From: Escherichia phage vB_EcoP_PAS59
Reading direction: 5' to 3' (one strand)
Sequence record: OQ921332.1
DNA: 64,000 nt
Below the pieces are notes generated by a model, which saw only the letters and a program-made list of their open reading frames with translations, was not told the origin of the DNA and did no database searches. A program made the position numbers and the translations under genes. Shown here one piece after another: positions 2,353 to 24,011 of the stretch; within the stretch, counting starts at the first letter, position 1, and every line of letters starts with the position of its first letter.

Positions 2353-2666
2353 ATTTCTAAGGTGATTGCACATCTTGCCCCTGTTTAGCTCGTTAGGATG
2401 CTTCCTATGTGCCTAGATTTCGATTATAGGGCTTGTTTTCTTCCTCCCTTGATGTTATTCGTGTGTGCGTTCCTTTATGCCTAAAAGAAAGTGAAATTAT
2501 TTTAGAAAAAGACTTGCAACGGTTTTAGGATAGTGTATATTGAATCTTGTCAGGACGTGATGCAGTAAGTTACCTCCTGATAGGCTAGATTCTTAGCCTT
2601 GCTCTTTAATAATTCGATTAGTGTATCTTGATAAACTCCCAACCATGCCATAATGAGGATTTATCA

Positions 2667-2867
2667 ATGAACGTGTATACCTTCTCAAGCAAAGACACGC
2701 AAATCACTTGCACTAGCATTAACGTTACTAACATGATTATGAGAATAGTCGGTAGTACATTACAGCAGGCAAAAGAGATGGTAGCCGATGCCGATAAAGG
2801 CAAAGCTATTGCGGTGTTATCGCTGGTAAGTACGGATAAAGATTTAACCTTTAAACGTATGAACTAA
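2667..2867 (+). CDS. hypothetical small protein
   Basis: ORF track 2628..2867; internal ATG 2667. Confidence 0.35.
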   Translation: MNVYTFSSKDTQITCTSINVTNMIMRIVGSTLQQAKEMVADADKGKAIAVLSLVSTDKDLTFKRMN

Positions 2868-2929
2868 GGTAAGGTTAGCGGCCTTAACGGTCGCTAGTTT
2901 ATCAAGATGCATTAATCGAAAAATAGTTG

Positions 2930-2957
2930 TTGACACATCGAATCATTATGATAAGAT
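2930..2957 (+). promoter_or_regulatory. sigma70-type early promoter (TTGACA ... TAAGAT)
   Basis: perfect -35 at 2930-2935; -10-like 2952-2957; GTTCAC follows as in the next promoter. Confidence 0.45.
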
Positions 2958-3003
2958 GTTCACACGGTCAGCGATGACATAAAACATCCGGCACTTAGTG
3001 CCC

Positions 3004-3023
3004 CGCTCTTTAACAATTTATCG
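3004..3023 (+). promoter_or_regulatory. boxA-like antitermination element CGCTCTTTAACAATTTATCG
   Basis: 18 of 20 nt identical to E. coli rrn boxA TGCTCTTTAACAATTTATCA as I recall it. Confidence 0.55.
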
Positions 3024-3089
3024 TCTTGCCCTTTCGCAAAGATTCACGCGAGATAAGGGAAGAGAATAAAAAGAAGACGATAAAAAGAG

Positions 3090-3117
3090 TTGACAAGGTG
3101 AAACGTTCTGATAGAAT
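3090..3117 (+). promoter_or_regulatory. sigma70-type early promoter TTGACA-N16-TAGAAT
   Basis: -35 at 3090-3095, -10 at 3112-3117. Confidence 0.55.
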
Positions 3118-3140
3118 GTTCACTAAGCAGTAAGAAACAC

Positions 3141-3156
3141 CGCTCTTTAAAAATAT
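3141..3156 (+). promoter_or_regulatory. degenerate boxA-like element CGCTCTTTAAAAATAT
   Basis: shares the GCTCTTTAA core with the 3004 and 3367 copies. Confidence 0.35.
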
Positions 3157-3256
3157 GAATCAGAAAGTTAAGCGCAACCGCTTACAATCTTGTTAATCCA
3201 ATGCGTGATTAACTGGTCATTCGAAAGAATAGACGAGAAAAAGATTAAAAAAGTGG

Positions 3257-3285
3257 TTGACACGCTAAACAGGATGATTCATAAT
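3257..3285 (+). promoter_or_regulatory. sigma70-type early promoter TTGACA-N17-CATAAT
   Basis: -35 at 3257-3262, -10 at 3280-3285. Confidence 0.55.
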
Positions 3286-3366
3286 GAGCACTCACTAGAC
3301 AACTAGTGAAACGCGAAACCACGGCGAACGGTGGCGGGAGGTGAGAAAGCACCTCGATAGATTTAC

Positions 3367-3386
3367 CGCTCTTTAACAATTTAAAC
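3367..3386 (+). promoter_or_regulatory. boxA-like antitermination element CGCTCTTTAACAATTTAAAC
   Basis: 17 of 20 nt identical to rrn boxA as recalled. Confidence 0.5.
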
Positions 3387-4198
3387 TTCTTCCTATATCG
3401 GTTGAACATGGCGAGCAATAATAACCATTGCAAGCTATGCCAGATAAAACGATGTAAGGCGCTCTAAAATATCAGAGGAAACCGCTTTATAATCCCTTAC
3501 TGGAAACGACACCACTGATAAATGAAGTTATTGAGTACATGCAAGGCTTAAGCTAATCGCCTACGGTTAAAGGGTAGCGGCGGCGGTGCTAGTAAAGTGC
3601 TACAATAATAGACGTTTATCGGGGTAGTCAAGTCCGACGAATTAACGCTCAATAGCGAGCGGCGGGAGGGGGTTAAAGAGTAGCAAATTGCTATTTAACA
3701 ATAAGGTTTAAGCGTGAGTATTTACTAAGTGAGTGTTTTGATACACATCAATAGCGATGTGAGTACATAAACATGTAGTGTAGTAAATCGTGAGAGAGAT
3801 AATCAAACGCCAAAGTATCAGGCGGTCAATGACTCTTTACCATATGCTTTCCCTTAGTAGGCGATAAGCAGGTTTAGAGAGTTGATATAAAAGGGTATCA
3901 CGAAGCGAAAGCAAAGTAGATAGTAATGCCATCGGCTAGAAATTTAGCTAATTAGAGATGGACGCGCTTGCCTTATTGTGATGATTGATCATCGCTGGCA
4001 AATCGGCTTTGTTTATAGCGATTAGTTGAATCCACCAGATGAAACATCACGGCAAGTTAGGCGGCAAGGTTAACTCCTGATAAGACCGCCTGATTTACCA
4101 CTGGTTACTAATGGTTAGTGATTAGTGTTAAGTCATAGTGACTTGAATAGCCCATAGAGGGCGGCGCATAGTGCGTTTATAATTGAAAGGTGAATATC

Positions 4199-5101
4199 AT
4201 GGCTAAAGTTTTTAATCTGGTTAACGAATCCGGCTTTAATGCACTGGCAAACAACATTCGTAGCAATAACGCGGCGATCAAACAAGATGTTTCTAACTTC
4301 CTGTTAGGGCATTTGCAGCACTTCCGCACCAACGGTAAGAAACTGGATGTATTGCAGGCGGCGGTTGATTTCTTGTTAACTGAACGTTATCGTGACTTAG
4401 ATGTGATTGCGGTTGCCATCTCTTTCTTAACTCCTATCAAATATAACACTGACGGGGCGAACGGTAAGAAGAAATGGATTAATCTGGAAGGTGAAGCGAA
4501 AGCTAAAGAAGATGCTAAACCGGAACAGGTTAAATCTAAAATGGAACAAAACCGCGCCCGCTGGTCGAATTCCTTTGAACGCTTTGCTAAAGGTGAAGAC
4601 GTGCAGGTTGATAACCCAGCATTCTACAAAGGTTGCAATGACAACGTTCCGGTAGCAAACCAGATCAACCAGAAGGTTAACGAAAACTTTAATCAGGATA
4701 TTTATGCACTGGTTGACCGTCTGGCTGCAATCCGTATTGAAGCGGCATTACTAGCAGATGAACGCAATGGCGCATCTTCTGATAACACTATCGCATTGAG
4801 TGAAGAAGTCGGCAAAGTTAAGAAAACTTTCGATTCACTCCTTAAGAAAGTGACCGCATCAACTGTATCTATCAGCGATGACTACCTGATTAATGCCTCG
4901 ACTAAAGAGCTTGAATCTCTGGACTCATACGCTGATGAAATGGAAAAAGCGATCAACGAAATGACTGAAAAATTGTCTAACCTTCGTGGTCGCATCTCAA
5001 ATGCTTCAACTATCAAAGCGAACGAGAAAGCTGCGCAGGAAGAAGAAGAAGTGTTGCGCAAAGCTGCCGAAATCATGGCAGCACGCCAACAAGCTGCATA
5101 A
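4199..5101 (+). CDS. early protein of unknown function (300 aa, acidic coiled-coil C-terminus)
   Basis: ORF track 4190..5101; ATG 4199; first long gene after the promoter and leader region. Confidence 0.6.
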   Translation: MAKVFNLVNESGFNALANNIRSNNAAIKQDVSNFLLGHLQHFRTNGKKLDVLQAAVDFLLTERYRDLDVIAVAISFLTPIKYNTDGANGKKKWINLEGEAKAKEDAKPEQVKSKMEQNRARWSNSFERFAKGEDVQVDNPAFYKGCNDNVPVANQINQKVNENFNQDIYALVDRLAAIRIEAALLADERNGASSDNTIALSEEVGKVKKTFDSLLKKVTASTVSISDDYLINASTKELESLDSYADEMEKAINEMTEKLSNLRGRISNASTIKANEKAAQEEEEVLRKAAEIMAARQQAA

Positions 5102-5120
5102 CCTATAATAAAACACATGA

Positions 5121-5154
5121 GGCGCTATTCGAAAGGGTAGCGCCTTTTTCTTTT
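5121..5154 (+). terminator. rho-independent terminator
   Basis: GGCGCTA-loop-TAGCGCC followed by TTTTTCTTTT. Confidence 0.6.
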
Positions 5155-5208
5155 ACTAGTGCATTGATTCAGTGTGCTAATCAAAGAAACTAAAAAGAGA
5201 TAAACACC

Positions 5209-5433
5209 ATGCCAAAACTGAAAACAGAAGTTAAGATGTATCGTAACATTCTCAACAACATGACCTATCGTAAAACCGATAAATACGGAATCGAATGCAA
5301 ATGCATTCTTACTGGCAAGTGGTATCCGTCGCCGATTCAAGAACAAGCATTGATTGAAAACTCTGTTACTTACACTATCACGCAGGAAACTAAGCTAGGC
5401 CGATTCCTTCGTAAGCTGGGGTTACGCAAATGA
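5209..5433 (+). CDS. hypothetical small protein
   Basis: ORF track. Confidence 0.45.
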   Translation: MPKLKTEVKMYRNILNNMTYRKTDKYGIECKCILTGKWYPSPIQEQALIENSVTYTITQETKLGRFLRKLGLRK

Positions 5434-5651
5434 TCTTAACTCAATCCCATTTGTGCCCTATCTGTAAGAAAGCACGTGCTAACAATAACCATCGCAAGTG
5501 TAGTAGAATCTTACAGCGTCGTCGTAATGATGCCGAGATGGATAAGATTCGAAAGAATCAGTATGAGCACGAAAGAAAACAAGCGGCGATTAGTGCATCT
5601 TCTGTAATGTATCGTCGTGTAAGAGCACTCCAATATAAAGAGGTTGTTTAA
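5430..5651 (+). CDS. small basic zinc-ribbon-like protein
   Basis: ORF track; CPICKK...HRKC; ATGA overlap with upstream gene. Confidence 0.45.
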   Translation: MILTQSHLCPICKKARANNNHRKCSRILQRRRNDAEMDKIRKNQYEHERKQAAISASSVMYRRVRALQYKEVV

Positions 5652-5861
5652 ATGACTAGTTTAAGCACGTTAGAGAAGAAAGCGACTCGACTGCTAGGAC
5701 GTCGTGTCCGCTACCACTACCTGAATAAAGGTAAGGCATTAACTGGACGTATTACCACGGTATCAAGTCGCTGCGGTAAACTAATCTCCGTAAGTGTTCT
5801 CTTTGATGGCGAACGTGTAGCAATTACACGTAGTTGGAAATCGTTTAGTTTAATTGATTAA
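5652..5861 (+). CDS. hypothetical small protein
   Basis: ORF track; abuts upstream stop. Confidence 0.45.
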   Translation: MTSLSTLEKKATRLLGRRVRYHYLNKGKALTGRITTVSSRCGKLISVSVLFDGERVAITRSWKSFSLID

Positions 5862-5931
5862 GTTATTTGGTTAAGCCTTGCTATGTGGTAAGGCTTGCAC
5901 GATATAATTTATCAGCGAAAGGAATAAAGCA

Positions 5932-6375
5932 ATGGCTAAATCTAAAATCAGCATGAAAGGCGGACGAGTGTTCTCTATGAGTGAGCTGGAAAAAGAAAAG
6001 CCAGCCGCTGTTAGTCATATTAGCAAACGTAGCCTTAAACGAAGAGCTATGAAACAGGCCGCTCAAGCACATAAAGAATCACCTGTACCAAAGGTGCTAG
6101 GTCGTCGTGTTCATCGTGCTGATGCGCTTCTTCTTGCTGATCACAAGCGTTCCTTGTTAACCAACGGGGCAGCAAAAACAGAACAAGAAAAACGTTTAGA
6201 AATCTTTTGTAATGGTCGCACTAAAGGTAAGCAGAAGAATAAAGGTAGCACTAAGCCACCGAAAGCATTTCCTACTACTAGTCAATGTGCACCGGATGTT
6301 TTCTACGCTGACAGTAAACACAAGTGGGGAGTTGAAAAATATATTGACCCAATCAAAACAGCAAGAGTTAAGTAA
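5932..6375 (+). CDS. highly basic (Lys/Arg-rich) protein, possibly nucleic-acid binding
   Basis: ORF track; composition only. Confidence 0.45.
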   Translation: MAKSKISMKGGRVFSMSELEKEKPAAVSHISKRSLKRRAMKQAAQAHKESPVPKVLGRRVHRADALLLADHKRSLLTNGAAKTEQEKRLEIFCNGRTKGKQKNKGSTKPPKAFPTTSQCAPDVFYADSKHKWGVEKYIDPIKTARVK

Positions 6376-6405
6376 GCCCCTTCTGTACCAGTGGTCAACT
6401 ACTAT

Positions 6406-6454
6406 GACGCTCTTCTTGAGCGTCTTTTGTCTGCCGCCTCTGTGCGGCTTTTTG
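6406..6454 (+). terminator. two tandem rho-independent terminators
   Basis: GACGCTC/GAGCGTC stem + T-run, then GCCGC/GCGGC stem + T-run. Confidence 0.55.
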
Positions 6455-6612
6455 CGTAGCTAGTGATGCCTAAAGGGAACTCCCTTTGTGAATCATTGGC
6501 ATGGTTCAATCCCTATTGGATGGTCATTTGACCGGGCCTTTAACGAGGCCGCTTTTTTAAGAGTCTTTGCGAGGATTTTTAAATGAGTGAGGTCATGTTC
6601 ACTTTTCAGGTC

Positions 6613-6639
6613 GCCCCGTCTTCGGATGGGGCTTTTTTA
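6613..6639 (+). terminator. rho-independent terminator
   Basis: GCCCCGTC-ttcg-GATGGGGC followed by TTTTTT. Confidence 0.55.
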
Positions 6640-6690
6640 TGCCCGTAAAACAGGGGGTAGTAAGTTCTGATAACGACAGCACAGCTACTT

Positions 6691-7077
6691 TTGACATTGA
6701 CTATTTATTATGAGGCAGGGAATCAGCCAACCGCTTGCAAAGCATTAGTAGCGGATACCGTAATAAACAGAATGTCACAACGAAAACTGACTGCCGAGCA
6801 GGTTATAAATCAACGAAACCAGTTCGAGTGGATACCCGTCCTATTAAAGAAGGAGAAACCTTTTAAGCGTTATGTAAAGCTGATTCGTGATGATAATCCT
6901 CTGACGAAGAAGTCAATCAGAGAGAGCGAGTGGCTTGCAAGGCGTGCACTGAAGAAAGGTTATGTGCCTTTGTACAGCGGTACATACTTTCAGAGTAAGA
7001 GCGAAGGGGTGCCAAAGTGGTATACCAATCCAATGTATTGTGGTGATTTAGTGTTCAATAATAGTGCCCGTGATTGA
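6691..7077 (+). CDS. possible SleB-like cell-wall hydrolase domain protein
   Basis: ORF track (TTG start, no clear RBS); EAGNQ...VADTVINR resembles the cell-wall hydrolase motif. Confidence 0.3.
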   Translation: MTLTIYYEAGNQPTACKALVADTVINRMSQRKLTAEQVINQRNQFEWIPVLLKKEKPFKRYVKLIRDDNPLTKKSIRESEWLARRALKKGYVPLYSGTYFQSKSEGVPKWYTNPMYCGDLVFNNSARD

Positions 7078-7278
7078 TTCATAGGTGCCAAGATTGACAA
7101 ACTAAATTTCCTTATAAATCACACACTTATGATTTTCTCTGCAAAAAGTGGAAGTGATTTGGGACCAGAGGTAATGACTGTATATAGACCTCTGAAAATT
7201 ATTGATAGAAATTAAGTTTAGAAATAATAAATTCTAAATAACATTTCTTATAATATCTTACTTTAAGAGGATAAAGAT

Positions 7279-7584
7279 ATGACTTTAGAGGTTTATAGAT
7301 TCCTTCTCGTACTCACCGTAACGATTTCTGTTCTAGGATTTATTGCGTTAAGTAATAAGTCAGCAAGCTGGAAGCGTCGTTATGAGTTCCTTCTTAAGCA
7401 AGAGGAAGTCTTTAATGCTGATGTTCGTTCCAAACTGCTCAAGATGCAGGAGCAAATTGAAGCACGTAATGATCGTTTGGCTTCTTTGGGTTGGGAGATT
7501 AAACGTATTCAAGATCTCAACAAGCAACTCGCTGAAGAAATTAAACGCCAGAATGAGGAAACAGAGGATGCGCTCAAAGGTTAA
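7279..7584 (+). CDS. membrane-anchored coiled-coil protein
   Basis: ORF track; N-terminal TM helix then charged helical region. Confidence 0.5.
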   Translation: MTLEVYRFLLVLTVTISVLGFIALSNKSASWKRRYEFLLKQEEVFNADVRSKLLKMQEQIEARNDRLASLGWEIKRIQDLNKQLAEEIKRQNEETEDALKG

Positions 7585-7744
7585 GTTTACCACTGGTAAC
7601 ACTGTTCGCCTTGTTGGCGGTACTCAAACAGGTGTTATTCGTCGGAGAACAACGATTGATGGTGTTCTCTGTTATCTTGTTCAGTGGAATGGTGAGTCTT
7701 CTCCTTCCTTCGAACGTCGTACTGATTTGGTGCTAGTCAAATGA
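7553..7744 (+). CDS. hypothetical small protein
   Basis: C-terminal part of ORF track 7382..7744; internal ATG 7553. Confidence 0.3.
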   Translation: MRKQRMRSKVKFTTGNTVRLVGGTQTGVIRRRTTIDGVLCYLVQWNGESSPSFERRTDLVLVK

Positions 7745-7974
7745 AGATAAACTTCGAAATCATCCCAAAGGTTAAAGAAAAGCAGCTAATCTTCAGTGAT
7801 CTCTCTAACGGGGATATTTTTAAATTTAAGAATGTTGATGCTGATACTTATCTTTGGATGAAAATTGACAAACGGTCTGCCATGAAGTTAAGTGACACTT
7901 CTGACATCACTGATGTATTTATCCATTCTGAAGTCTCTAAGTACAAATACAAAATTATCATTGAGGGTAAGTGA
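7741..7974 (+). CDS. small protein, GDxF paralog family
   Basis: ORF track; SNGDIFKF motif shared with 7974, 8735, 11249, 12306, 13948. Confidence 0.5.
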   Translation: MKINFEIIPKVKEKQLIFSDLSNGDIFKFKNVDADTYLWMKIDKRSAMKLSDTSDITDVFIHSEVSKYKYKIIIEGK

Positions 7975-8204
7975 TGAAAATTAATCTCTTCTCTGTAGTT
8001 GTTACTAAAAAGCTCAGTGAGTTACGTCCGGGCGATGTATTCCGTTTACCGACTAACTCTGAAAATGTCTACCTAAAGACAGACACTAGACTTAACGATA
8101 TGCATCGTGTGGTTGGTCTTAGTCAGGGGACACTGTTCCAATTACAGGAAGACCATGAAGTTATCCCTGTACCTGATGTTCAAGTAACTCATATCAATGG
8201 TTAA
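7974..8204 (+). CDS. small protein, GDxF paralog family
   Basis: ORF track 7971..8204; PGDVFR ... IPVP shared with 13948..14199. Confidence 0.5.
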   Translation: MKINLFSVVVTKKLSELRPGDVFRLPTNSENVYLKTDTRLNDMHRVVGLSQGTLFQLQEDHEVIPVPDVQVTHING

Positions 8205-8206
8205 GT

Positions 8207-8340
8207 AACATCGACTTATAGCCCTTGTGTTTATCAGAGGGCTATGTGAGGGTGTTCCTCAATTAACTATAATCTCAACGCCATATGGCTCACCGCTAGG
8301 GCGAGACTTGTCTCAAACATCCGGTGATAGACTAAAACCT
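8207..8340 (+). repeat. conserved intergenic element, copy 1 (perfect 8-bp hairpin 8218-8245 plus ~90 nt of conserved sequence)
   Basis: near-identical to 14201-14340, including ATAGCCCT-loop-AGGGCTATGTGAG and CTCAAACATCCG. Confidence 0.55.
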
Positions 8341-8510
8341 GTTAATTTTCGAACAGCTTTCCGATATGTAGGGGTATGTATCGGTTTGGGATAGAGAACA
8401 ATCTAGGGGTAGAGAGTTCTCGACAGTTAGTACAAGCGGAAGCCTTAACGTGTAGGGCTTCCCTTTATATTAACTGGCAAACCTGCCTCCACCAACAAAG
8501 AGAGAACGAT

Positions 8511-8651
8511 ATGAAGAAGACAACCAAACGTATGAACCGTCCTGAACGTATGGATGCAGTAGCAAATGGTGCTCTGAAGATTGAGTCTGCCATGCTTCGT
8601 CTGACAACTAACATCCGTAAGCGTCAAGGTGATTGGTTCTACGGTGGATAA
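8511..8651 (+). CDS. hypothetical small basic protein
   Basis: internal ATG of ORF track 8376..8651 behind AGAGAGAA. Confidence 0.3.
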   Translation: MKKTTKRMNRPERMDAVANGALKIESAMLRLTTNIRKRQGDWFYGG

Positions 8652-8734
8652 TTAATAATGGGCTGCCCTTCGGGGTGGCCTTTGTTGTTTTAATTAAGGG
8701 ACAACTCTTAATTAAACTAACAAGAGAGGTTGAT

Positions 8735-8986
8735 ATGTTCAATCGTTTATTTGACCGTAAAGGTCGCACTGACATACTGATACCCTCTATCGGTGTGCCA
8801 GCTAAGTTCGGTGAGATACGTGCTGGTGATTTCTTCATGGAATCAGGTCGTCTTCATCTGAAGATTAATCTTGAACACGCTGTAGAAATCCTCAGTGATG
8901 ATAAGCCAATCATTGGCACTTCGGTGTACAGTGCAAACCATACTGTATTTGTTGTCAACGTCCAGATTGAGATTAAAAAGCCATGA
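8735..8986 (+). CDS. small protein, GDxF paralog family
   Basis: ORF track 8633..8986, start moved to ATG 8735 behind AGAGAGG; AGDFF motif. Confidence 0.45.
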   Translation: MFNRLFDRKGRTDILIPSIGVPAKFGEIRAGDFFMESGRLHLKINLEHAVEILSDDKPIIGTSVYSANHTVFVVNVQIEIKKP

Positions 8987-9291
8987 CAATTTCATCTTCA
9001 ACTCGCTGCAATCCTAATGTAGATATCCGTGCTCAAATGTCTAAGATGCCCGGTGTTACTCATTTAGAGTTCACCTACAGTCACTCGCGGTATGAACCGG
9101 GCTTTACTGTGGTAATAAAATCTCCGTGGTTAACAATGACATTGTTCTCGGATGAAGTTGAGAAGGCGGTGAATGGTATTAAGTCAGGCGGACTTAAACT
9201 TTTATCCACTGAACTGGCTGATGAGTTCATGCCTCTTATCCGTAAAGGTGTGGCTAAAATGAACAAAATGATGGAGGCTGCAAAGCAATGA
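8983..9291 (+). CDS. hypothetical protein
   Basis: ORF track; ATGA overlap. Confidence 0.45.
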   Translation: MTISSSTRCNPNVDIRAQMSKMPGVTHLEFTYSHSRYEPGFTVVIKSPWLTMTLFSDEVEKAVNGIKSGGLKLLSTELADEFMPLIRKGVAKMNKMMEAAKQ

Positions 9292-9542
9292 CAAACTTCC
9301 GAGCAGCAGTTATTACGAAAGTAATAGCAGTTGGTGATGTAATGATGCAAGTTCCTCTGAACACTCGTTACATTGCCATTGACCGAATGGGTTATGTGTG
9401 GGCTTGGAAGTGGAAGCCTACTTACAATGAACTGTTCGACGAATACCAGTGCGCTGGGCCTTACATGCCAACGTTGGTTGGTGTGTATGAAGACGGTCCT
9501 TGTCGTACTCCTCAGTTAATTGAACTACCGGCGTGTGCTTAG
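9288..9542 (+). CDS. hypothetical protein
   Basis: ORF track. Confidence 0.45.
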   Translation: MTNFRAAVITKVIAVGDVMMQVPLNTRYIAIDRMGYVWAWKWKPTYNELFDEYQCAGPYMPTLVGVYEDGPCRTPQLIELPACA

Positions 9543-9543
9543 T

Positions 9544-9708
9544 ATGATTAAATGGTTCAAGCGTCTTGTGCATCTGCATGATTGGGTAATCCTTGAAAAA
9601 TATACGCTGAAGATTACTGACGATCACGGTGGGACAAAGCACAAAGGTCTTCGCTATATTATGCAGTGTAAAGTGTGTGGTCATGTTACCAAGCGTGACA
9701 TGATCTAA
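9544..9708 (+). CDS. small zinc-ribbon-like protein (tandem paralog 1 of 3)
   Basis: MIKWFKRL...CKVCGH; internal ATG of ORF track 9520..9708. Confidence 0.45.
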   Translation: MIKWFKRLVHLHDWVILEKYTLKITDDHGGTKHKGLRYIMQCKVCGHVTKRDMI

Positions 9709-9717
9709 GGGATCATT

Positions 9718-9882
9718 ATGATTAAATGGTTCAAGCGTCTCTTTCATTTCCATGAGTGGGAAGATCTTTCTACTTATGAATTGACGATCACAAATAAACT
9801 TACTGACAGAGAGCGACAAGGGTTGCGTATCTACTCTCGCTGTAAAGTGTGTGGTCTGCACAAGAAAACAGATTTGATCTAA
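9718..9882 (+). CDS. small zinc-ribbon-like protein (tandem paralog 2 of 3)
   Basis: 54-aa ORF below the track cutoff; MIKWFKRL...CKVCGL. Confidence 0.4.
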   Translation: MIKWFKRLFHFHEWEDLSTYELTITNKLTDRERQGLRIYSRCKVCGLHKKTDLI

Positions 9883-9890
9883 GGGGTGTT

Positions 9891-10100
9891 ATGTTCTTTC
9901 GTAAGAAAAAGCCCGAAGATTCTGGATGTAAACATGAATGGGTGGTCACTGAAAACTTACATATCACTCACGCTAAAGACACTCCAGTAGAGAGAAAAGA
10001 ATCTCGTGTATCTCGCATCTGTAAACACTGTTTGAAAATAGAACAGCATAAAGTTCCCGGTCATATCGGTCATGATGTGGCCTTGCGTATTTTCAGTTAA
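9891..10100 (+). CDS. small zinc-ribbon-like protein (tandem paralog 3 of 3)
   Basis: internal ATG of ORF track 9849..10100; H.W ... ICKHC. Confidence 0.4.
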   Translation: MFFRKKKPEDSGCKHEWVVTENLHITHAKDTPVERKESRVSRICKHCLKIEQHKVPGHIGHDVALRIFS

Positions 10101-10109
10101 ACAAATCCA

Positions 10110-10185
10110 GCACCCTTAGCTCAATGGACAGAGCAGCGACCTTCTAAGTCGTTGGTTACAGGTTCGAATCCTGTAGGGTGCACCA
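10110..10185 (+). tRNA. tRNA-Arg (anticodon TCT)
   Basis: hand-folded cloverleaf: acceptor GCACCCT/AGGGTGC, D-arm GCTC..GAGC, anticodon loop CTTCTAA, T-arm ACAGG-TTCGAATC-CTGT, encoded CCA. Confidence 0.85.
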
Positions 10186-10203
10186 ATCAACGTAGGAGGG
10201 TTT

Positions 10204-10344
10204 ATGACCCCTGAGTTTAATGAGTGGTTCGATGATATCTTTACTTCTCCTTTGTTCAGCGAAGAAGAAAGAGAAGAACTTAAAACCTACCTATGGATGG
10301 CTTGGCGAGATAGCCGCCGTAAGGCGCTTCAGGAGGGATCATGA
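10204..10344 (+). CDS. small protein (46 aa), paralog of 11879..12010
   Basis: EWF...EELKTY.W.AWRDSRRK shared; below the track cutoff. Confidence 0.4.
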   Translation: MTPEFNEWFDDIFTSPLFSEEEREELKTYLWMAWRDSRRKALQEGS

Positions 10345-10667
10345 GCTGGGGTGGTGTAATTACCTTAACCTGTATCTTTATCGCCTGTGTAGCTCTTACA
10401 GGCTGTGTACAGCATCGTCCTGATGGGTGGTGTGCATTATCTGTAGAAGGTGTCTGTGTTTCCCGTTGGCATAGTGGGGAGAAGGTTCCTAGCGGTGAAA
10501 TTGATATGCGTTATGCTGGCGCTTCTTGTTCTAATGGCGGTGCTGTTGACGAGAAAGCTTATGCAAAACGTGACATGGAAACACAAGGTGATTGGTCACG
10601 ATACGACTTCATCTCCCGTGGTGTACAGTGTAGTGGCTCTGTGACAACAACAGGTAAGGAGTGGTGA
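10341..10667 (+). CDS. Cys-rich secreted protein or lipoprotein
   Basis: ORF track; signal peptide with LTGC lipobox-like site. Confidence 0.4.
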   Translation: MSWGGVITLTCIFIACVALTGCVQHRPDGWCALSVEGVCVSRWHSGEKVPSGEIDMRYAGASCSNGGAVDEKAYAKRDMETQGDWSRYDFISRGVQCSGSVTTTGKEW

Positions 10668-10668
10668 T

Positions 10669-10923
10669 ATGTCTAGTCATTATTCTGATACGAAAGCTTT
10701 ACTGGAAACAGCGGCTCAGACTTCATGCCAACAGCAAGTAAAAATGTTGTTGGTTGATATTCGTAATCTGCGTTGGCTTATCAAAGAAGGTCATATCGGA
10801 AACGCTGCCTATTACAACGTTAAAGATATCCTTCGCCGCCAGCACTTTCTTATCCACGGAAACGTGGTCACTCGCAACTATCAGTGGAATGGTCAATGGT
10901 TACAGCAGCGTATGTCCTCCTGA
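10669..10923 (+). CDS. hypothetical protein
   Basis: ORF track. Confidence 0.4.
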   Translation: MSSHYSDTKALLETAAQTSCQQQVKMLLVDIRNLRWLIKEGHIGNAAYYNVKDILRRQHFLIHGNVVTRNYQWNGQWLQQRMSS

Positions 10924-11150
10924 TTTATGTTATTGGTTGGTGGTTAGCAGCCATCGTAGTTAAGTGGTGCTTCAAAACCAATACATTCTATAACTTCTTC
11001 CACAACCCGTGGAGTGGTAAGCCTGATGAATATTCTATCTGGATAGTAATATTCTTCTGGCCTATTTTGTTATTATTCCTCTTACTCATCCCTTTCATGC
11101 TCCTGTTAGGGTGGGTGTTGGACAAGATGACAATCTTTATTATACATTGA
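10896..11150 (+). CDS. small membrane protein (paralog of 11622..11870)
   Basis: two hydrophobic helices; shared F.WPI motif; internal ATG of ORF track 10884..11150. Confidence 0.4.
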   Translation: MVTAAYVLLIYVIGWWLAAIVVKWCFKTNTFYNFFHNPWSGKPDEYSIWIVIFFWPILLLFLLLIPFMLLLGWVLDKMTIFIIH

Positions 11151-11248
11151 AAGAAAGGATTAATAAAACCCACTTCATCATGTATGGTCGTACTAGAAGT
11201 TATATCAAGTATGACTTTTGGAACTCTTACTACGGTTAGGATGTTATT

Positions 11249-11470
11249 ATGAAACTGAATTCTAAACAGTGCCTTAAAACTGTTGAACTATCCTCCCTCT
11301 CTAATGGGGATGTTTTTGGGCACGATAAACATTTCTGGATTAAAACAGATTTCTTAAATGACGGGTACATCACCTGCGTCAATCTTTGGAATGGTTCGGT
11401 AGATGGTTATCGCCCTAGTGCACAAGTGGTTCCTCAGCCTGATGCAAAGGTTGTAGGTTTAGTCTACTAA
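11249..11470 (+). CDS. small protein, GDxF paralog family
   Basis: ORF track; SNGDVFGHDKHFWIKTD. Confidence 0.45.
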   Translation: MKLNSKQCLKTVELSSLSNGDVFGHDKHFWIKTDFLNDGYITCVNLWNGSVDGYRPSAQVVPQPDAKVVGLVY

Positions 11471-11479
11471 GGAATTCAT

Positions 11480-11653
11480 ATGGCTTGCTATGGTGGTGGT
11501 GAAGTGTGTGACGATGATGACATGGAATCCAACGGAGAGTGCCCTGACTGTGGGTGTGAGACGTGGAATGGTGTGTCAGTATATCCTGCCTGTAGTTATT
11601 CACCAGTGATTTGTAAAACATGTGGAGATCAACCTTGTGATCAGTCCTGTTAG
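11480..11653 (+). CDS. small Cys-rich protein (57 aa)
   Basis: ATG behind AAGGA; CPDCGC and CKTCGDQPCDQSC clusters; below the track cutoff. Confidence 0.4.
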   Translation: MACYGGGEVCDDDDMESNGECPDCGCETWNGVSVYPACSYSPVICKTCGDQPCDQSC

Positions 11654-11870
11654 TGTGTTAATAGTCTACCTGATAGGTATTGTGTTAACCTCAGCTCTGA
11701 TAAAATTCCTTGATGTAAAAGGTAGTGTCGAGTTCAGAGGATGGGGTAACGAACCAAACCTATCAAAGATAGCAATTATAGTTTTTCTATGGCCCATTGT
11801 TGCTGTGATGTTTATATCCCTTTGCTTGTGGGCAGGGCTGTGGGGTTTCATTCTTCCTAAAAAGGAGTAG
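11622..11870 (+). CDS. small membrane protein (paralog of 10896..11150); start uncertain
   Basis: ORF track; F.WPI motif. Confidence 0.4.
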   Translation: MEINLVISPVSVLIVYLIGIVLTSALIKFLDVKGSVEFRGWGNEPNLSKIAIIVFLWPIVAVMFISLCLWAGLWGFILPKKE

Positions 11871-11878
11871 GGGTATTT

Positions 11879-12010
11879 ATGACTAAAGAATTTTTAGAGT
11901 GGTTTGGAAATACCTTCAAAGAATATCTATTCTCTCCAGAAGACTTTGAAGAGCTGAAAACCTACACTTGGTTGGCTTGGAGAGATAGCCGACGAAAAAT
12001 GAATAAGTAA
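11879..12010 (+). CDS. small protein (43 aa), paralog of 10204..10344
   Basis: ATG behind AAAGGAG; EWF...EELKTYTWLAWRDSRRK. Confidence 0.4.
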   Translation: MTKEFLEWFGNTFKEYLFSPEDFEELKTYTWLAWRDSRRKMNK

Positions 12011-12305
12011 TATCGTGAAGGACTCTTACGAGAGTCCTTTGAGATAGGACTTCAGATCTTCTATCAAACTAACTTTCACGTAACTAGCCCATAAGGGCGT
12101 TACCCTTCAATAACCCAGCCCACTAAGGGGGCGGGAGTTTAGTGCTGGAAAAGCATAACGCTTATCCTACAAAGGCAACCGATTGTTAGATCTTACATGC
12201 AATATTAATTAATAGGATATGGGAGGATTCGTCCCCTCCCCCTATTTATGAAAGCATTCTCCCGAGAGTTCTCTCATAAATTGGTCCATAACTAAAGGTG
12301 GTAAA

Positions 12306-12560
12306 ATGAAAGTTAACAAACCAGCCAGTAAGAACGCAATACCACTCAGCGCTCTGCGTCTTGGGGATTGCTTCATGTACCCTAACAGTGAAGATGGTGA
12401 TTTGTATATCTTACTGTCTACAGAGTTCTCCACTCGTTTGTGCATTAAGGGTGCGGACGAGCACAGACTTGTAGCCTGTCTTAACACAGGCCGAGCGACA
12501 GCTCCTCGTAAAGATGTTGCTGTTATTCCTATTAAAGCTGAAGCAACTATTAAGGAGTAA
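12306..12560 (+). CDS. small protein, GDxF paralog family
   Basis: ORF track; LRLGDCFMYP. Confidence 0.45.
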   Translation: MKVNKPASKNAIPLSALRLGDCFMYPNSEDGDLYILLSTEFSTRLCIKGADEHRLVACLNTGRATAPRKDVAVIPIKAEATIKE

Positions 12561-12563
12561 GCA

Positions 12564-12827
12564 ATGGCTCTGACCATTAACAAAACTCGTATTGCGGATA
12601 TTCCTCTAATGGTGGCAGGTGTTTCTATCGGTTCTTTCTTTACTTTGAAAGAAGATAAAGAACAAACCATTTACATGAAAGTGAACAAAAGCTCTAATGG
12701 TTGTGAATACCACCGAGCTGTGTCTGTGCAGAGTGGATACGTTCGTAATATGGCATCCAATATGCCAGTTGGTGTTGTGTTTGAATCAGCAACTCTGGAT
12801 TTAGTGGAGAAGATCAGTGAAACATAA
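12564..12827 (+). CDS. small protein (divergent GDxF-family member?)
   Basis: ORF track. Confidence 0.4.
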   Translation: MALTINKTRIADIPLMVAGVSIGSFFTLKEDKEQTIYMKVNKSSNGCEYHRAVSVQSGYVRNMASNMPVGVVFESATLDLVEKISET

Positions 12828-13074
12828 AGACCATCCAAAGTATGTATCGCTATTGGATGCAGCCCTTCTCTGCACGTACTGGCTCCTTATTGTTATTGGG
12901 GTTGTGCTAATGATATGTGGTGTCGTACAGTTCTTTATGTATCTGCAAAGCGTGTTAGATACCACATTAGCTAACACTATAATCCTTGCAATTCTCGGTG
13001 TTATTGCTTTCTGTGTGATTGTCTTCTTCGTTTGGTTATCTATGAACGACGACTCTACACACACCTTCTATTGA
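12817..13074 (+). CDS. small membrane protein
   Basis: ORF track; two hydrophobic helices. Confidence 0.35.
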   Translation: MKHKDHPKYVSLLDAALLCTYWLLIVIGVVLMICGVVQFFMYLQSVLDTTLANTIILAILGVIAFCVIVFFVWLSMNDDSTHTFY

Positions 13075-13273
13075 CAGGAGAAAATCAGTGAGAAAACGTG
13101 CCTACTCTGAAGAAGAAATGGTTAACTTGAAAGGCTTCGGTCAACGACAGCCTGACGGTTCAGTTATCTGGTACATTAACGGACAGAAAAAGGCAAGTAA
13201 ATAAGCCCTCTTCTCTCCTCCTTTTAACTACTATGACGCCTCTCTTTTCGGCGCTGTTTTGGAGCTTCAAAAA

Positions 13274-13687
13274 ATGGCTGGGAAATTCCCCAACGTAAGC
13301 AAGAAATTGGCTTACCTCACGTATAAAGAAAACATTGATCTTCTGGTCAAGCTTTATCCGGCTTCATTCAACAAGCAATTCCCTCTTCCTTTGGAGCTTA
13401 ACATCCATAAGGAAATAGCCCGTAAGACCGGTTGGTCAGCGGAGAAAACAAGCATGGTGCTCAACATCTGGACTACTCGTATGGAGTATGTGATGATGGC
13501 CTGTAGCACTGGTAAACGCTTCAAGCTGCACTCTGTAGCTATGAAGATTCGTAGCCCTATCGACCCTGAGCCGATGGCTGGGTTCAGTAGCCGTTTGAAA
13601 TCTTTCCGTGATCGTGGTCGTGTAGTGAAATTCAAGCATGACTTCTCTTACAAGTTTGGATACGAAGCGTTCCAATTTGTTGTTTAA
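13274..13687 (+). CDS. ProQ/FinO-domain RNA-binding protein (putative)
   Basis: internal ATG of ORF track 13259..13687; pattern YPASFNKQFPLPLELNIHKEIARKTGWSAEKTSMVLNIWTTRMEYV aligns with the E. coli ProQ N-terminal domain as recalled. Confidence 0.45.
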   Translation: MAGKFPNVSKKLAYLTYKENIDLLVKLYPASFNKQFPLPLELNIHKEIARKTGWSAEKTSMVLNIWTTRMEYVMMACSTGKRFKLHSVAMKIRSPIDPEPMAGFSSRLKSFRDRGRVVKFKHDFSYKFGYEAFQFVV

Positions 13688-13714
13688 TCTCTCTTTAAAA
13701 TAAGGTAATAAAAC

Positions 13715-13948
13715 ATGTCTAAAGTTAGCGCAATTGATGCCATCCGTCAGCCGTTCCAGTTCCAGTCTAAATCAACTCAGACCCACAGCGAACCTAAACA
13801 GATTCGTCTGGGCGGTACAGAGAAGACTGTATTTGATATTGCGAAAAACAAAAGCGTAACCATCGTCGAAGGCGGCGAACTGGTTAATGTTTCCCACCGT
13901 ATTCGCACTGGCAAGACTGCCAAAGATCGTGCTAAGAAAGGTTTGTAA
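13715..13948 (+). CDS. hypothetical small protein
   Basis: ORF track; translation-initiation region AAGGTAATAAAnATGTCTAAAGT repeated at 34410. Confidence 0.45.
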   Translation: MSKVSAIDAIRQPFQFQSKSTQTHSEPKQIRLGGTEKTVFDIAKNKSVTIVEGGELVNVSHRIRTGKTAKDRAKKGL

Positions 13949-14199
13949 TGCAAATTTCCAATAAAACACCTCCTGAGCCTACTGTTCAAGTAAAAGATAT
14001 GACACCGGGAGATGTGTTTCGTTCGGTTGAATATCCGGGGGAATTCTTTATCCGAACCCCTTCTGCCTCTGTTGATGGTGTCACTAAGCCGGTAACAGCA
14101 GTTCAGTTGAGCACAGGTCATCTCTTCCGTTTAGAGCTTGACATGGCAGCTATTCCTGTTCCGACAGCAATCCTCCGCTTCGACGGAGACACAGAGTAA
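13948..14199 (+). CDS. small protein, GDxF paralog family
   Basis: ORF track; PGDVFR ... IPVP. Confidence 0.5.
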   Translation: MQISNKTPPEPTVQVKDMTPGDVFRSVEYPGEFFIRTPSASVDGVTKPVTAVQLSTGHLFRLELDMAAIPVPTAILRFDGDTE

Positions 14200-14200
14200 C

Positions 14201-14340
14201 ATCTATAGCCCTCGTGAGTATCAGAGGGCTATGTGAGCTATTCTGGCTCAACTAACCTAATCTTAATTTAATCTTACCCGTATGGGGCCGATGCTAGGGA
14301 GAGGAACAATCCTCAAACATCCGTCGGATAGAATATTTTA
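14201..14340 (+). repeat. conserved intergenic element, copy 2 (hairpin 14206-14231)
   Basis: near-identical to 8207-8340. Confidence 0.55.
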
Positions 14341-14604
14341 AGAGCAGGTTATCCACAGATATTGGGTGATATCTATTTAATTGGCCTTAAAGCTTGGCTC
14401 TCTTAGGAGAGTCCTTTTTTAAGTTCAAAGAAGAGGTTGTATGGATAATAAGTTGAAAGCTAAATTCTTATTGGCAGCAATCTTTATTTGCTTAGCCACT
14501 GTAGGGTTTGTCAGGATGTACTCTTTTGCATCTTGTGAATTAAGCAAGAATGATAGAGGGTCTTACAACTGGCTAACCAATCAATGTGACAAACAGGAGA
14601 AGTT

Positions 14605-14967
14605 ATGAACCTACGCCCCATTAAAGGCCATGTGAACCTGTCTACGCTTCATAAAGTAGCAAATGATTTAGGTGGTATGGATGAGAATGATTTGGAGCAG
14701 AATTTGCTCTGGATTGCTAATGGCATCAAGGCGGCAAAGGCCAAAATGGCTCGTGCACAAGGTAAACTAAAAGCGAATAAATATCTTATTCGTCGTCGTA
14801 ATGTCTTGCCTCAGGATGTGGTGAGTTTAGCTTTATCGGGATATAAAGCGGCAGAGTTAGAACTTCAGGAAGCTGAATTTGAAAAGATGCGCTTCCAAGA
14901 GAACTATCGAAACTTCCGTAGTATTGACTACATTCGCAAATCTCTGGGCCTTCTGGTATCAGAGTAA
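14605..14967 (+). CDS. hypothetical protein
   Basis: ORF track. Confidence 0.5.
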   Translation: MNLRPIKGHVNLSTLHKVANDLGGMDENDLEQNLLWIANGIKAAKAKMARAQGKLKANKYLIRRRNVLPQDVVSLALSGYKAAELELQEAEFEKMRFQENYRNFRSIDYIRKSLGLLVSE

Positions 14968-14977
14968 AGAGGTAAAA

Positions 14978-16195
14978 ATGTTCCCTGTAACACTTCAAAG
15001 CTGGAAAGAATCAGAAGACGTTGTAACTGTTTGGCCTCCTTGTTATGGTTTCCTGAAAGCAGGTTACTATCAGGGTGGTGATTATGATGAAGATGAAGAT
15101 GGTTATCCTGACTACTACAACGCATATGACAGCAATTTTGGCTGGAATATCCGTATTAAGGTGTGGAGTGAGGGTATGATGGTTCGTCAAGGCACTGCTG
15201 AAGAGAATGTTCTCGAAAACATGATGCCTATGTCCGAAATCAAGTACATCTGGAACTCTGGTACACACCTTCCCGCTTATGGTGTAAAACGTTATGGCGA
15301 TAAAGAGCCTATTACCACTCAGTATTTCCGCGAAGGGTTGGAGAATGGAGACCCTCGTCCTCCGTCTCATGTAGAAACATGGGCAGAAGAAAACAACCGT
15401 CCTGATATTACTGATCGCGCTGTAATGGAAACCTTTGAAGCATTCATGGATAAAGACCTCGATTCATGTCTGGTGTGGCATGAAGCAGGATTCATGGGTG
15501 TTTGTACTGATGGTTGTCCTGCTGATCGCGCTCTGTTCTATCTGATGCTGAATCGCACATTCTATACAGATGATGAAAAATCTGCTGTGTATGAAATGTT
15601 GAACAAGATGTATAAGAAGGGCTGGTCTCCTTTAGCCTCTCTTGCATTCAGCCGACTGATCAACTCTTCAGTGGATGTGTTCGGTAACGAACGTGTTGCT
15701 TTAACAGGGAATGATTACGATTCCTGTATCTTCCAAGCATCTCTGTATACAGTGGGTGTTGGCAGTACAATGGTTGAACCTCGCCAGACCAAGTGGCGAC
15801 AGTGTGAATACACCGAAGGTGAAGGGCATCTTCGTGATGAAGACTTCCCCAGTCTGCTCTACCGTAGTGAAGGTGTGCGAGACTGTCGAGTGAATAACTC
15901 AATGTTCTTACCAATCCTTCTTCCTCAGTATTGCAATCTGCCGAATGGTGAACGTCCGGTCATCACAGAGAAGTCACTCTTGGTTGAATTTATCCGAGAA
16001 GTAGCTGAATCTGAAACATCTTTTGATAAAATTGTGTTCGGTTATAACTGGAACAATGAAACAGCTTCAGCTCGAAGCTACAACACGTATAACATTATCA
16101 GTAGTATGTCCAATGGACTGACAGGTAGTAATTATACAGTACGTCCCTCAGAAGAGTGGGAAAACATTTTGGAAAAATTATTCTTCAATAAATAG
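14978..16195 (+). CDS. large acidic Trp/Tyr-rich protein of unknown function (first gene of the amide-ligase block)
   Basis: ORF track 14879..16195; ATG 14978 behind AAGAGG. Confidence 0.55.
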   Translation: MFPVTLQSWKESEDVVTVWPPCYGFLKAGYYQGGDYDEDEDGYPDYYNAYDSNFGWNIRIKVWSEGMMVRQGTAEENVLENMMPMSEIKYIWNSGTHLPAYGVKRYGDKEPITTQYFREGLENGDPRPPSHVETWAEENNRPDITDRAVMETFEAFMDKDLDSCLVWHEAGFMGVCTDGCPADRALFYLMLNRTFYTDDEKSAVYEMLNKMYKKGWSPLASLAFSRLINSSVDVFGNERVALTGNDYDSCIFQASLYTVGVGSTMVEPRQTKWRQCEYTEGEGHLRDEDFPSLLYRSEGVRDCRVNNSMFLPILLPQYCNLPNGERPVITEKSLLVEFIREVAESETSFDKIVFGYNWNNETASARSYNTYNIISSMSNGLTGSNYTVRPSEEWENILEKLFFNK

Positions 16196-16203
16196 AGGCG
16201 AAT

Positions 16204-17154
16204 ATGTCAATCTCCGCATCGATTGCTCCGGTAACACCGGCAGAGGATTTCGGTGAGTCAGTGTTTAAAGGAAGGGCTTGCTTTGGTACTTTTAACTGTA
16301 TGCACATGTACTCTGTTACAGACATTAATGGCGACAGTCTTAGACAAACAAACCTTCGTGATAGAACTTCAGAAATTGAAGTTATTAACTTCTGGCCTCA
16401 CAATTTTTATGGCGTACCGTCTAAAGATATCGAAAGAGCTTTAGTTGAAGCAACAGACATTTTTAACTCAATGTCTTGCTATAAAGATATGTTCTCTGTC
16501 ACTTCGGTGAACTCTATTGCCGTGAACCTTCGAAACCATCCAGCAGACAAGGTGTTTACTGGACTAATGACCATCCGTAGCTATTTGGATGGTGATTTTA
16601 ATGGAATGGAGTTCCTTCAGGAAGGCGTACAAGACAAGGAAGAGTTGCTTAAGCGACAACGAATCGGTTTAGCTCTACGCCTAGCTGGTTTAAGTCGTAA
16701 CTTCTTTGGTCGCTGGTGTTATAGTAATGACGTAGACTCAACTGATGAGTCAGCAGCGACTTATTTTGATGGTGACATGAGTGCAATTGCATTTCTGCCA
16801 CTAATTTGCACCACTGATGAATTTTCTGAAAACGTATGGGTTCAGAATGTGTTCGGTGTTGATGATAACCGAGATGGTTATGTACGAAACCATAATGATG
16901 GAGTTCTCCGTCGTATGGCACGTCGTCGTGACCAAGACCCTGACCATTATGAGAGTATGAGTGAGTGGTTGCGTCTCTGGTCAACTTGTGCAGGTCACAA
17001 GCGAGAAGTATTAGATCAGCGTATGGACAGAATTACTGTTCGCAGTTTTATTGAACGTCTGATGCAAGCAGTACCTTCCTCAATGACACCAGAAGAAGCT
17101 GGTGCCCGTGTTGTTTCCCTTTTTGATGAACTCGTGGAGTATTACAATGACTAA
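16204..17154 (+). CDS. protein of unknown function
   Basis: ORF track; stop overlaps next start. Confidence 0.55.
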   Translation: MSISASIAPVTPAEDFGESVFKGRACFGTFNCMHMYSVTDINGDSLRQTNLRDRTSEIEVINFWPHNFYGVPSKDIERALVEATDIFNSMSCYKDMFSVTSVNSIAVNLRNHPADKVFTGLMTIRSYLDGDFNGMEFLQEGVQDKEELLKRQRIGLALRLAGLSRNFFGRWCYSNDVDSTDESAATYFDGDMSAIAFLPLICTTDEFSENVWVQNVFGVDDNRDGYVRNHNDGVLRRMARRRDQDPDHYESMSEWLRLWSTCAGHKREVLDQRMDRITVRSFIERLMQAVPSSMTPEEAGARVVSLFDELVEYYND

Positions 17155-17953: not shown

Positions 17954-17962
17954 GGTGATATT

Positions 17963-19686: not shown

Positions 19687-19763
19687 CACAATGGGCGCTC
19701 TGATAAAGGGCGCATTTAAAGGTTAATTAGATGAAAGGGTTTACCCTTCAGGTGGATTAGAAA

Positions 19764-21797: not shown

Positions 21798-21808
21798 GAG
21801 GTATAGTT

Positions 21809-22244: not shown

Positions 22245-22246
22245 AA

Positions 22247-23494: not shown

Positions 23495-23520
23495 TTAAAT
23501 TAAACAAAAAGGAATTTGTA

Positions 23521-23945: not shown

Positions 23946-24011
23946 TTTGCTTTAGCCTCTTCGAAAGAGGAGGCTAGTTCGAATTTAACTGAAACACTAA
24001 AAGGTAATATA

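Follow-up and report, generated by a model that had tools for sequence, protein, structure and literature searches.

Perfect boxA elements behind tandem sigma70-type promoters precede a large structured RNA in phiEco32-like coliphages

The early region of Escherichia phage vB_EcoP_PAS59, a phiEco32-like podovirus of E. coli (Gordonclarkvirinae), carries a series of perfect matches to the host boxA element, set behind tandem sigma70-type promoters and leading into a structured RNA of about 0.9 kb that holds no conserved open reading frame (ORF). These features were found in a window of 64,000 nucleotides (nt), which is the entire stretch of DNA analyzed (record OQ921332.1), and they occupy an ORF-poor gap between the early operon at 771–2307 and a gene for 300 amino acids at 4199–5101. 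With the exception of two spurious copies that had been proposed earlier, the boxA series is genuine and far exceeds what chance would give, and the perfect elements are almost certainly host-type boxA of the N-independent kind known from ribosomal RNA (rrn) operons, to judge by their sequence. We consider it probable that the gap is an early transcription unit built like an rrn operon, in which boxA would load host Nus factors without the need for N and the polymerase would produce a long structured RNA.

The gamma-proteobacterial boxA consensus, GYTCTTTAANA, was derived both experimentally and phylogenetically by Baniulyte et al. (PMC5725501). Exactly four perfect matches to it exist in the 64 kb (at 2601, 3005, 3142, and 3368), where 0.58 would be expected, and none of 100 shuffled sequences reached this count. 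All four are on the + strand and fall within 780 bp (2601–3378). Likewise, the string CGCTCTTTAA occurs in the 64 kb only at 3004, 3141, and 3367, against an expectation of 0.12, and three copies were found in 0 of 100 shuffles. The original prediction for this DNA had placed boxA elements at these last three positions, and each is indeed a perfect consensus match; the copy at 2601 had escaped it. It had also equated the first and third copies with the rrn boxA at 18 and 17 of 20 positions. The E. coli K-12 rrnB leader reads GCCGCTGAGAAAAAGCGAAGCGGC-AC-TGCTCTTTAACAATTTATCAGAC, with TGCTCTTTAACAATTTATCA as its boxA region, and comparison with the latter confirms 18/20 for the first copy and lowers the third to 16/20. 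The boxA elements and the hairpins that accompany them are as follows.

2582–2599, + strand: hairpin directly upstream of boxA0, in the boxB-then-boxA order of rrn leaders
2600–2613, + strand: boxA0, TGCTCTTTAATAAT, perfect consensus match behind the weaker promoter P0
2990–3002, + strand: hairpin GGCAC-UUA-GUGCC, one base upstream of boxA1
3004–3017, + strand: boxA1, CGCTCTTTAACAAT, about +40 from the predicted P1 start
3024–3063, + strand: hairpin after boxA1 with a 10-nt loop and an interrupted stem, unlike lambda boxB
3141–3154, + strand: boxA2, CGCTCTTTAAAAAT, about 8–17 nt from the predicted P2 start
3338–3355, + strand: covarying hairpin upstream of boxA3, with compensatory changes in three of six pairs
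3367–3380, + strand: boxA3, CGCTCTTTAACAAT, abutting the 5′ strand of the closing helix of RNA domain I
3689–3702, + strand: boxA-like TGCTATTTAACAAT, off-consensus at C4; 3′ strand of a hairpin at 3678–3696, running into the closing helix of domain II

The boxA copies are in sense orientation, 17–75 nt past the predicted starts of consensus-grade sigma70 promoters. These promoters were scored by their match to the sigma70 consensus, out of 12 positions, and the transcription starts used throughout are predictions from these matches rather than mapped ends.

609–636, + strand: near-consensus promoter TTGACA-16-TATAGT, driving the first short early operon (771–2307)
2514–2541, + strand: P0, weaker sigma70-like promoter TTGCAA-16-TATATT, 9/12
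2930–2957, + strand: P1, TTGACA-16-TAAGAT, 10/12, TG-extended
3090–3117, + strand: P2, TTGACA-16-TAGAAT, 11/12, TG-extended, with an A-rich tract upstream
3257–3285, + strand: P3, TTGACA-17-CATAAT, 11/12, with an A-rich tract upstream; its sequence is kept in all relatives examined

Together with the promoter at 609, P1 to P3 are the best sigma70 matches of the first 24 kb in the promoter scan, which agrees with the original prediction of three TTGACA promoters at 2930, 3090, and 3257 with 16–17 bp spacing. The genome paper on phage SU10 reports three sigma70 promoters in this spacer, as in phiEco32 (PMC4281155), and the tandem promoters were thus already known for the phage group. The module that runs from P0 to boxA0 is also present in SU7, NC-B, UKE3, and Bas86. 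The strong promoter at 609, which serves a short translated operon ending at a terminator (2327–2347), has no boxA behind it, and this fits a specificity of boxA for untranslated RNA.

We compared the homologous gap in 17 related phages of the genera Suseptimavirus, Kuravirus, and Nieuwekanaalvirus, making 18 genomes with the window. Every one of the 17 carries four to five copies that match the consensus perfectly and share a single orientation. Among the 75 copies from the 18 genomes, the core GCTCTTTAA-N-AA(T) shows essentially no variation, and all 75 match every specified position of the host consensus; the upstream flanks differ, and several Kuravirus modules cannot be aligned to the window at all. 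Most of the 75 copies follow a TTGACA-N16/17 -10 promoter match, and their distance from the predicted start ranges from about +8 to +137. Phages SGF2, KBNP1711, EcoN5, and IMEP8 have no P2 match in the scan and yet keep boxA2, which suggests that polymerases from upstream promoters may also use this copy. Because perfect, sense-oriented boxA elements stay invariant despite unrelated flanks, recruitment of NusB and NusE is the most economical reading of the series.

A repeated, invariant motif close to promoters could in principle be a DNA site, for instance for a phage or host DNA-binding protein, with its resemblance to boxA arising by coincidence. This explanation would have to accommodate the agreement of 75 of 75 copies, at every specified position, with a host RNA consensus that was derived independently. 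Furthermore, the motif is not palindromic, and it always has one orientation and always follows promoter matches at a variable distance. We therefore regard a DNA site as extremely unlikely. The same repetition could also be viewed as a sponge, in which abundant early transcripts with three to five boxA copies each titrate NusB and NusE away from the host rrn operons and thereby contribute to host shut-off. Multiple perfect copies that follow the window's strongest promoters, held at four to five across the subfamily, would suit such a function. However, this proposal is purely speculative, and it explains neither why boxA3 borders a structured domain nor the structured RNA itself, so we judge it very unlikely.

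The surroundings of the elements are more reminiscent of rrn than of lambda. A hairpin precedes boxA0, boxA1, and boxA3, and none precedes boxA2 or many of the Kuravirus copies. The hairpin at 3024–3063 is kept in 15 of the 17 relatives (the exceptions are SGF2 and KBNP1711). In reading the sequence after the phage boxA copies, we saw neither a GU-rich boxC nor a lambda-type boxB with a short N-binding loop. No N homologue appears among the Pfam results for six neighboring proteins, although no search aimed at N was made. Local folds leave most of the boxA core unpaired, and the full-length consensus structure pairs the first five bases of boxA3 (3367–3371). The original prediction had proposed that the phage uses host NusB/NusE antitermination as both rrn operons and lambda nut sites do. 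Perfect, sense-oriented, invariant copies support its rrn half, and the fact that no lambda-type boxB was seen after boxA speaks against the likeness to lambda nut sites.

The second principal feature of the gap, which the original prediction did not include, is the RNA at 3292–4190, a large + strand structure of about 0.9 kb. Between the first boxA and the gene that follows, the sequence is approximately 73–97% conserved in all relatives examined, which is similar to the conservation of the neighboring protein gene. An alignment of window positions 3286–4200 with 16 homologues yields an RNAalifold consensus of 242 pairs, 69 of which are changed on both sides in a compensatory manner. Paired cells in this consensus structure amount to 99.1%, compared with 93.5% in shuffled alignments, and 0 of 500 shuffles reached the observed value. 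The 69 compensatory pairs compare with 32 in shuffles and with 3–7 when partners were slid by one to three columns, and the covariation score is 0.241 versus 0.03–0.06 in the slid controls. The consensus energy is -253.6 kcal/mol for the + strand and -164.1 kcal/mol for the - strand; the corresponding z scores of single-sequence folds are -6.7 and -4.4. Given that the + strand consensus energy lies far below that of the - strand, the structure belongs to the + strand. Its main parts are the following.

3380–3677, + strand: domain I, about 300 nt (helices 4–17), closed by the long-range helix 3380–3393/3664–3677
3454–3490, + strand: covarying hairpin 3454–3465/3474–3490 (helices 9 and 10), with compensatory changes in 5 of 12 pairs
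3698–3979, + strand: domain II, about 280 nt (helices 19–29), closed by helices 3698–3716/3963–3979
3980–4177, + strand: row of 3′ hairpins (helices 30–38), several with compensatory changes
4185–4195, + strand: Shine-Dalgarno region of gene 4199, predicted to pair (helix 3) with 3361–3371, which spans the first bases of boxA3 and its 5′ flank

The boxA series and the RNA meet at position 3380, where the last base of boxA3 begins the closing helix of domain I. Knowledge of the structure also disposes of the two spurious copies, which the original prediction had described as degenerate boxA elements near 3460 and 3482. These sequences are the two strands of the covarying hairpin at 3454–3490, and in relatives they undergo coordinated changes that preserve the pairing and lose the likeness to boxA (e.g., GACTCCCTAAATTATCAGGGTAAACAGTTTT). 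The element at 3689 is doubtful as a fifth boxA for a related reason. It is invariant in all 18 genomes, but it is paired in a hairpin and departs from the consensus at position 4, which has been used experimentally to inactivate boxA (PMC5725501). Since this position is broken and the partner strand of the hairpin varies only through G-U pairs, we treat the element as structural.

The gap shows no sign of being coding. Two candidate frames, one of 40 codons on the + strand and one of about 60 codons on the - strand, are free of stops in most genomes, and we rejected both as genes. They display no codon periodicity, with variable columns distributed over the codon positions as 14:11:14 and 13:17:15. 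In addition, the + frame lacks a 5′ start codon, and the - frame contains internal stops in some genomes.

The pairing of 3361–3371 with 4185–4195 appears in both the consensus and single-sequence folds, and its sole variant keeps the pair by replacing U-G with U-A. It brings to mind the boxA of E. coli suhB, a repressive element on which occlusion of the Shine-Dalgarno sequence has been documented to depend (PMC5725501). By analogy, a Nus complex might loop the phage RNA and either hide a ribosome-binding site or promote Rho termination, which would throttle gene 4199–5101 and also the small ORF at 2667–2867, whose start lies about 55 nt downstream of boxA0. However, with almost no variation in the helix, covariation speaks neither for nor against it. 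Moreover, boxA1 to boxA3 are 0.8–1.2 kb from the start codon, far past the distances studied for suhB, and a single occlusion has no need of four to five copies behind separate promoters. Repression by boxA thus seems to us quite unlikely.

Returning to the rrn-like unit that we favor, its operation can be outlined as a sequence of predicted steps. Host sigma70 RNA polymerase would start at the three strong tandem promoters and at the weaker upstream P0, and the nascent RNA would expose a perfect boxA about 20–80 nt from each start. The boxA RNA would then bind the host NusB–NusE(S10) pair, which, with NusA, NusG, and SuhB, would turn the polymerase into an N-independent, rrn-type elongation complex with the 5′ boxA RNA tethered to it. 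The modified polymerase would transcribe the untranslated RNA at 3292–4190 and subsequently the downstream early genes. In E. coli, formation of the rrn complex depends mainly on boxA, the order of elements is boxB-boxA-boxC, and boxB is dispensable (PMC8632103).

Two roles could be served by such a complex. In one, it would shield a transcript that carries no ribosomes from Rho, much as boxA shields long untranslated CRISPR transcripts (PMC7665894). In the other, it would assist the formation of long-range helices. Tethered 5′ nut-like RNA at the RNA exit has been proposed to promote helices such as the leader-trailer stem of 16S rRNA (PMC8632103), and boxA3 immediately precedes the closing strand of a 300-nt domain, comparable with the position of boxA/boxC for 16S rRNA. 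Both roles fit because the transcript is free of ribosomes for about 0.9–1.2 kb and because its first domain-closing strand begins at boxA. Long untranslated, structured transcripts are the classic setting in which boxA acts independently of N, as for rRNA and CRISPR arrays. With such an RNA as the target, one would expect protection from Rho, help in folding, or both, rather than a general resistance to terminators.

General resistance to terminators is what a lambda-nut-like mechanism would provide, in which boxA-modified polymerases pass processively through the terminators of the early operon and the structured RNA is merely a leader. The scan found no promoter match of at least 11/12 within 4200–24000, and P1 to P3 therefore probably feed many early genes; on this account, boxA may help to carry polymerase through a long early operon. 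According to the SU10 paper, this spacer contains the block's only early promoters (PMC4281155). Downstream, terminator-like hairpins are more numerous than expected (23 versus 14.9), and published work on the related Salmonella phage 7-11 leaves its antitermination strategy undefined while postulating an unidentified mechanism of this kind (PMC8948821). Nevertheless, N-independent Nus complexes are documented against Rho and not against strong intrinsic terminators (PMC5725501). The absence of a lambda-type boxB after boxA is a further difficulty, as is the lack of Pfam matches among the six neighboring proteins, within the limits of that search. Finally, about 900 nt of conserved, covarying structure between the boxA sites and the first gene would go unexplained. 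We consider general antitermination fairly unlikely.

Several observations also weigh against the rrn-like unit that we prefer. The RNA is poor in C (C/G 0.72, falling to 0.59 in domain II) and heavily paired, and it may resist Rho unaided. If it does so intrinsically, as rRNA does, protection from Rho becomes a weaker rationale, and the weight shifts to folding or to the downstream genes. Phage 7-11, a distant relative, has about 1 kb without ORFs upstream of gp151 at its early end (NC_015938, 4865–5917, minus strand), of which some 940 nt (4865–5800) fold unusually well (z = -4.5). This comparable leader has no boxA, so a leader of this type does not strictly need the element; gene 4199–5101 and gp151 share no homology. 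In PAS59, boxA2 is unusually close to the predicted P2 start. Hairpins that resemble intrinsic terminators follow the RNA at 5119 and at 6406–6632, and rrn-type complexes are not known to overcome such terminators efficiently. The primary phiEco32 papers, which lie outside the literature covered here, may discuss these elements or report conflicting starts.

A more far-reaching form of our proposal is that the rrn-operon logic serves to mass-produce the two-domain, 0.9-kb RNA within the first minutes of infection, and that this RNA represents a new class and acts in its own right, beyond being a 5′ leader. It might be a scaffold or decoy for host proteins or defense systems, or a structured pre-primer for replication. 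We advance this only as a tentative possibility.

The distribution of the RNA is narrow. All 97 related phage records that were found have it, and it was found nowhere else. Region 2400–4300 is 97% identical to Phage NC-B and 88% identical to vB_EcoP_SU7, and every one of the 97 records with a homologue of it is an Escherichia or Shigella phage. Complete E. coli genomes contain nothing similar to 2925–4198. An invariant 19–20-mer was scanned against IMG/VR, metagenomes, and 185,579 species genomes. The IMG/VR scan returned five contigs, all confirmed as homologous by blastn, and 8 of 18 metagenome matches are homologous phage contigs with about 75–80% identity. Six matches in bacterial genomes were all dismissed as chance. 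Apart from chance matches, the scans recovered only genomes from this one phage group, with identities of at least 75%, and no more distant homologue of the RNA.

Known RNA families do not include it either. With Rfam 15 at the gathering threshold, only the transfer RNA (tRNA) at 10110 passes in the whole window and nothing passes in the RNA region, and at a permissive threshold the best matches within 2400–4300 reach at most 17 bits with E values above 1. No tRNA or transfer-messenger RNA was found in the RNA region. The RNA is annotated in none of the related genome records, some of which have many tiny "hypothetical protein" calls in its place (e.g., MZ234017), and the phiEco32 counterpart of the gap is about 1.95 kb without an annotated gene. 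This phage group is not named in the main text, as distinct from the supplementary lists, of a catalogue of candidate viral RNA structures (PMC10690425). In the literature reached, to which the primary phiEco32 papers do not belong, neither boxA nor a structured RNA is mentioned for these phages, and to that extent both appear to be new. At about 900 nt and with 69 covarying pairs, the RNA is among the larger structured RNAs found in a coliphage. In phage LAMP, part of domain II (window positions ~3790–3850) is replaced by unrelated sequence with an insertion (LAMP ~1780–1860), indicating that this part of the domain tolerates replacement.

The genes and other features that flank the unit are listed here.

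2667–2867, + strand: small ORF of 66 amino acids between boxA0 and P1, not annotated in the matching ORF-free gap of phiEco32
4199–5101, + strand: first gene 3′ of the RNA, 300 amino acids, phrog_13018, confined to the same 97 phage records
5119–5146, + strand: strong intrinsic-terminator-like hairpin (12 pairs and a T tract) after gene 4199–5101

Pfam gave no match for the six flanking proteins, and PHROGs gave only families without an assigned function plus one labeled "terminase." This label (phrog_13168) attaches to the 108-amino-acid early protein encoded at 1981–2307, which several GenBank records also call terminase; its small size and early position make the label doubtful. Four terminator-like hairpins are clustered within 230 bp inside the early region (6406, 6433, 6535, and 6613), and the tRNA at 10110–10185, a tRNA-Arg(TCT) gene, lies among early genes. 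A decamer, ATAACCTATG, with a variant form, ATAACTAATG, recurs every 10 bp at 121–154 and again at 192 and 438, close to where the window begins and upstream of the first early promoter. These decamers are contained within 118–205 and 438–446 and could serve as iterons for a binding protein or be connected with the genome end. A C-rich stretch at 396–492 carries repeated CTACCCGTT and TCTTACCCAT motifs at 396, 424, 454, and 484. The GC-skew profile was considered as a hint of a replication origin and rejected, as it merely tracks the direction of transcription.

Modification of RNA polymerase through boxA is textbook knowledge for lambda, where it involves N, and for rRNA, and it has recently been extended to CRISPR arrays and suhB. 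If our proposal is correct, these phages would offer a clean natural case of a virus that borrows the rRNA transcription machinery, with four to five full-consensus, N-independent boxA elements, one per early promoter. They would also provide a simple phage context in which to ask what N-independent Nus complexes do beyond rRNA, be it a block to Rho or the work of an RNA-folding chaperone. The system is tractable, as nusB, nusE, suhB, and rho tools are available in E. coli K-12. The BASEL collection includes members of the subfamily, and engineered E. coli K-12 supports their growth (PMC11990801).

Among known systems, the rrn leader shares the most features with the phage unit. These include tandem strong sigma70 promoters with A-rich upstream tracts, a boxA that agrees with that of rrnB at 16–18 of 20 positions, and a long, untranslated, highly structured product. 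A hairpin stands directly upstream of boxA in three of four phage copies, and in rrnB the boxB hairpin is followed by two bases and then by TGCTCTTTAACAATTTATCA. In both systems, boxA also lies just 5′ of a strand of a long-range, domain-closing helix (PMC8632103). The phage differs from rrn in that no GU-rich boxC was seen, that each promoter has its own boxA whereas rrn has one that is shared, and that the product is a 0.9-kb RNA followed by protein genes rather than rRNA; its link to Nus factors is predicted.

Lambda nutL and nutR likewise place boxA RNA just downstream of early promoters, and engagement of NusB and NusE is predicted for PAS59 as well. The boxA of lambda departs from the consensus, whereas that of PAS59 is the full host consensus. 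Lambda requires a downstream boxB hairpin and the N protein (PMC5725501), in contrast to PAS59, where no N-type boxB follows boxA; an N-like protein was not specifically searched for. Another parallel is the N-independent boxA at the start of long untranslated CRISPR-array transcripts, where Stringer et al. 2020 showed that it prevents premature termination by Rho (PMC7665894). Those are host repeat arrays processed to small RNAs, whereas the RNA of this virulent phage is a single large covarying structure. GOLLD and ROOL RNAs (bioRxiv 10.1101/2024.12.08.627333) resemble it in being phage-borne, several hundred nt long, and rich in covariation. In contrast to them, the PAS59 RNA matches no Rfam 15 family, theirs included, is confined to one coliphage subfamily, and stands alone in its coupling to boxA and tandem early promoters.

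Among phages, the nearest precedent is T7, another virulent coliphage with three tandem strong host promoters (A1, A2, and A3) at its early end. Its leader has an element, CGCTCTTTAACAA, that matches the boxA consensus, and the sequence about 60 nt after A3, GACGCTCTTTAACAATCTGG, agrees with it perfectly. This element is not annotated in the T7 record, and to our knowledge no function has been established for it. T7 has a single copy, after the last promoter, and a leader of less than 200 nt before gene 0.3. In contrast, PAS59 has one boxA for each promoter, together with a structured untranslated RNA of about 0.9–1.2 kb.

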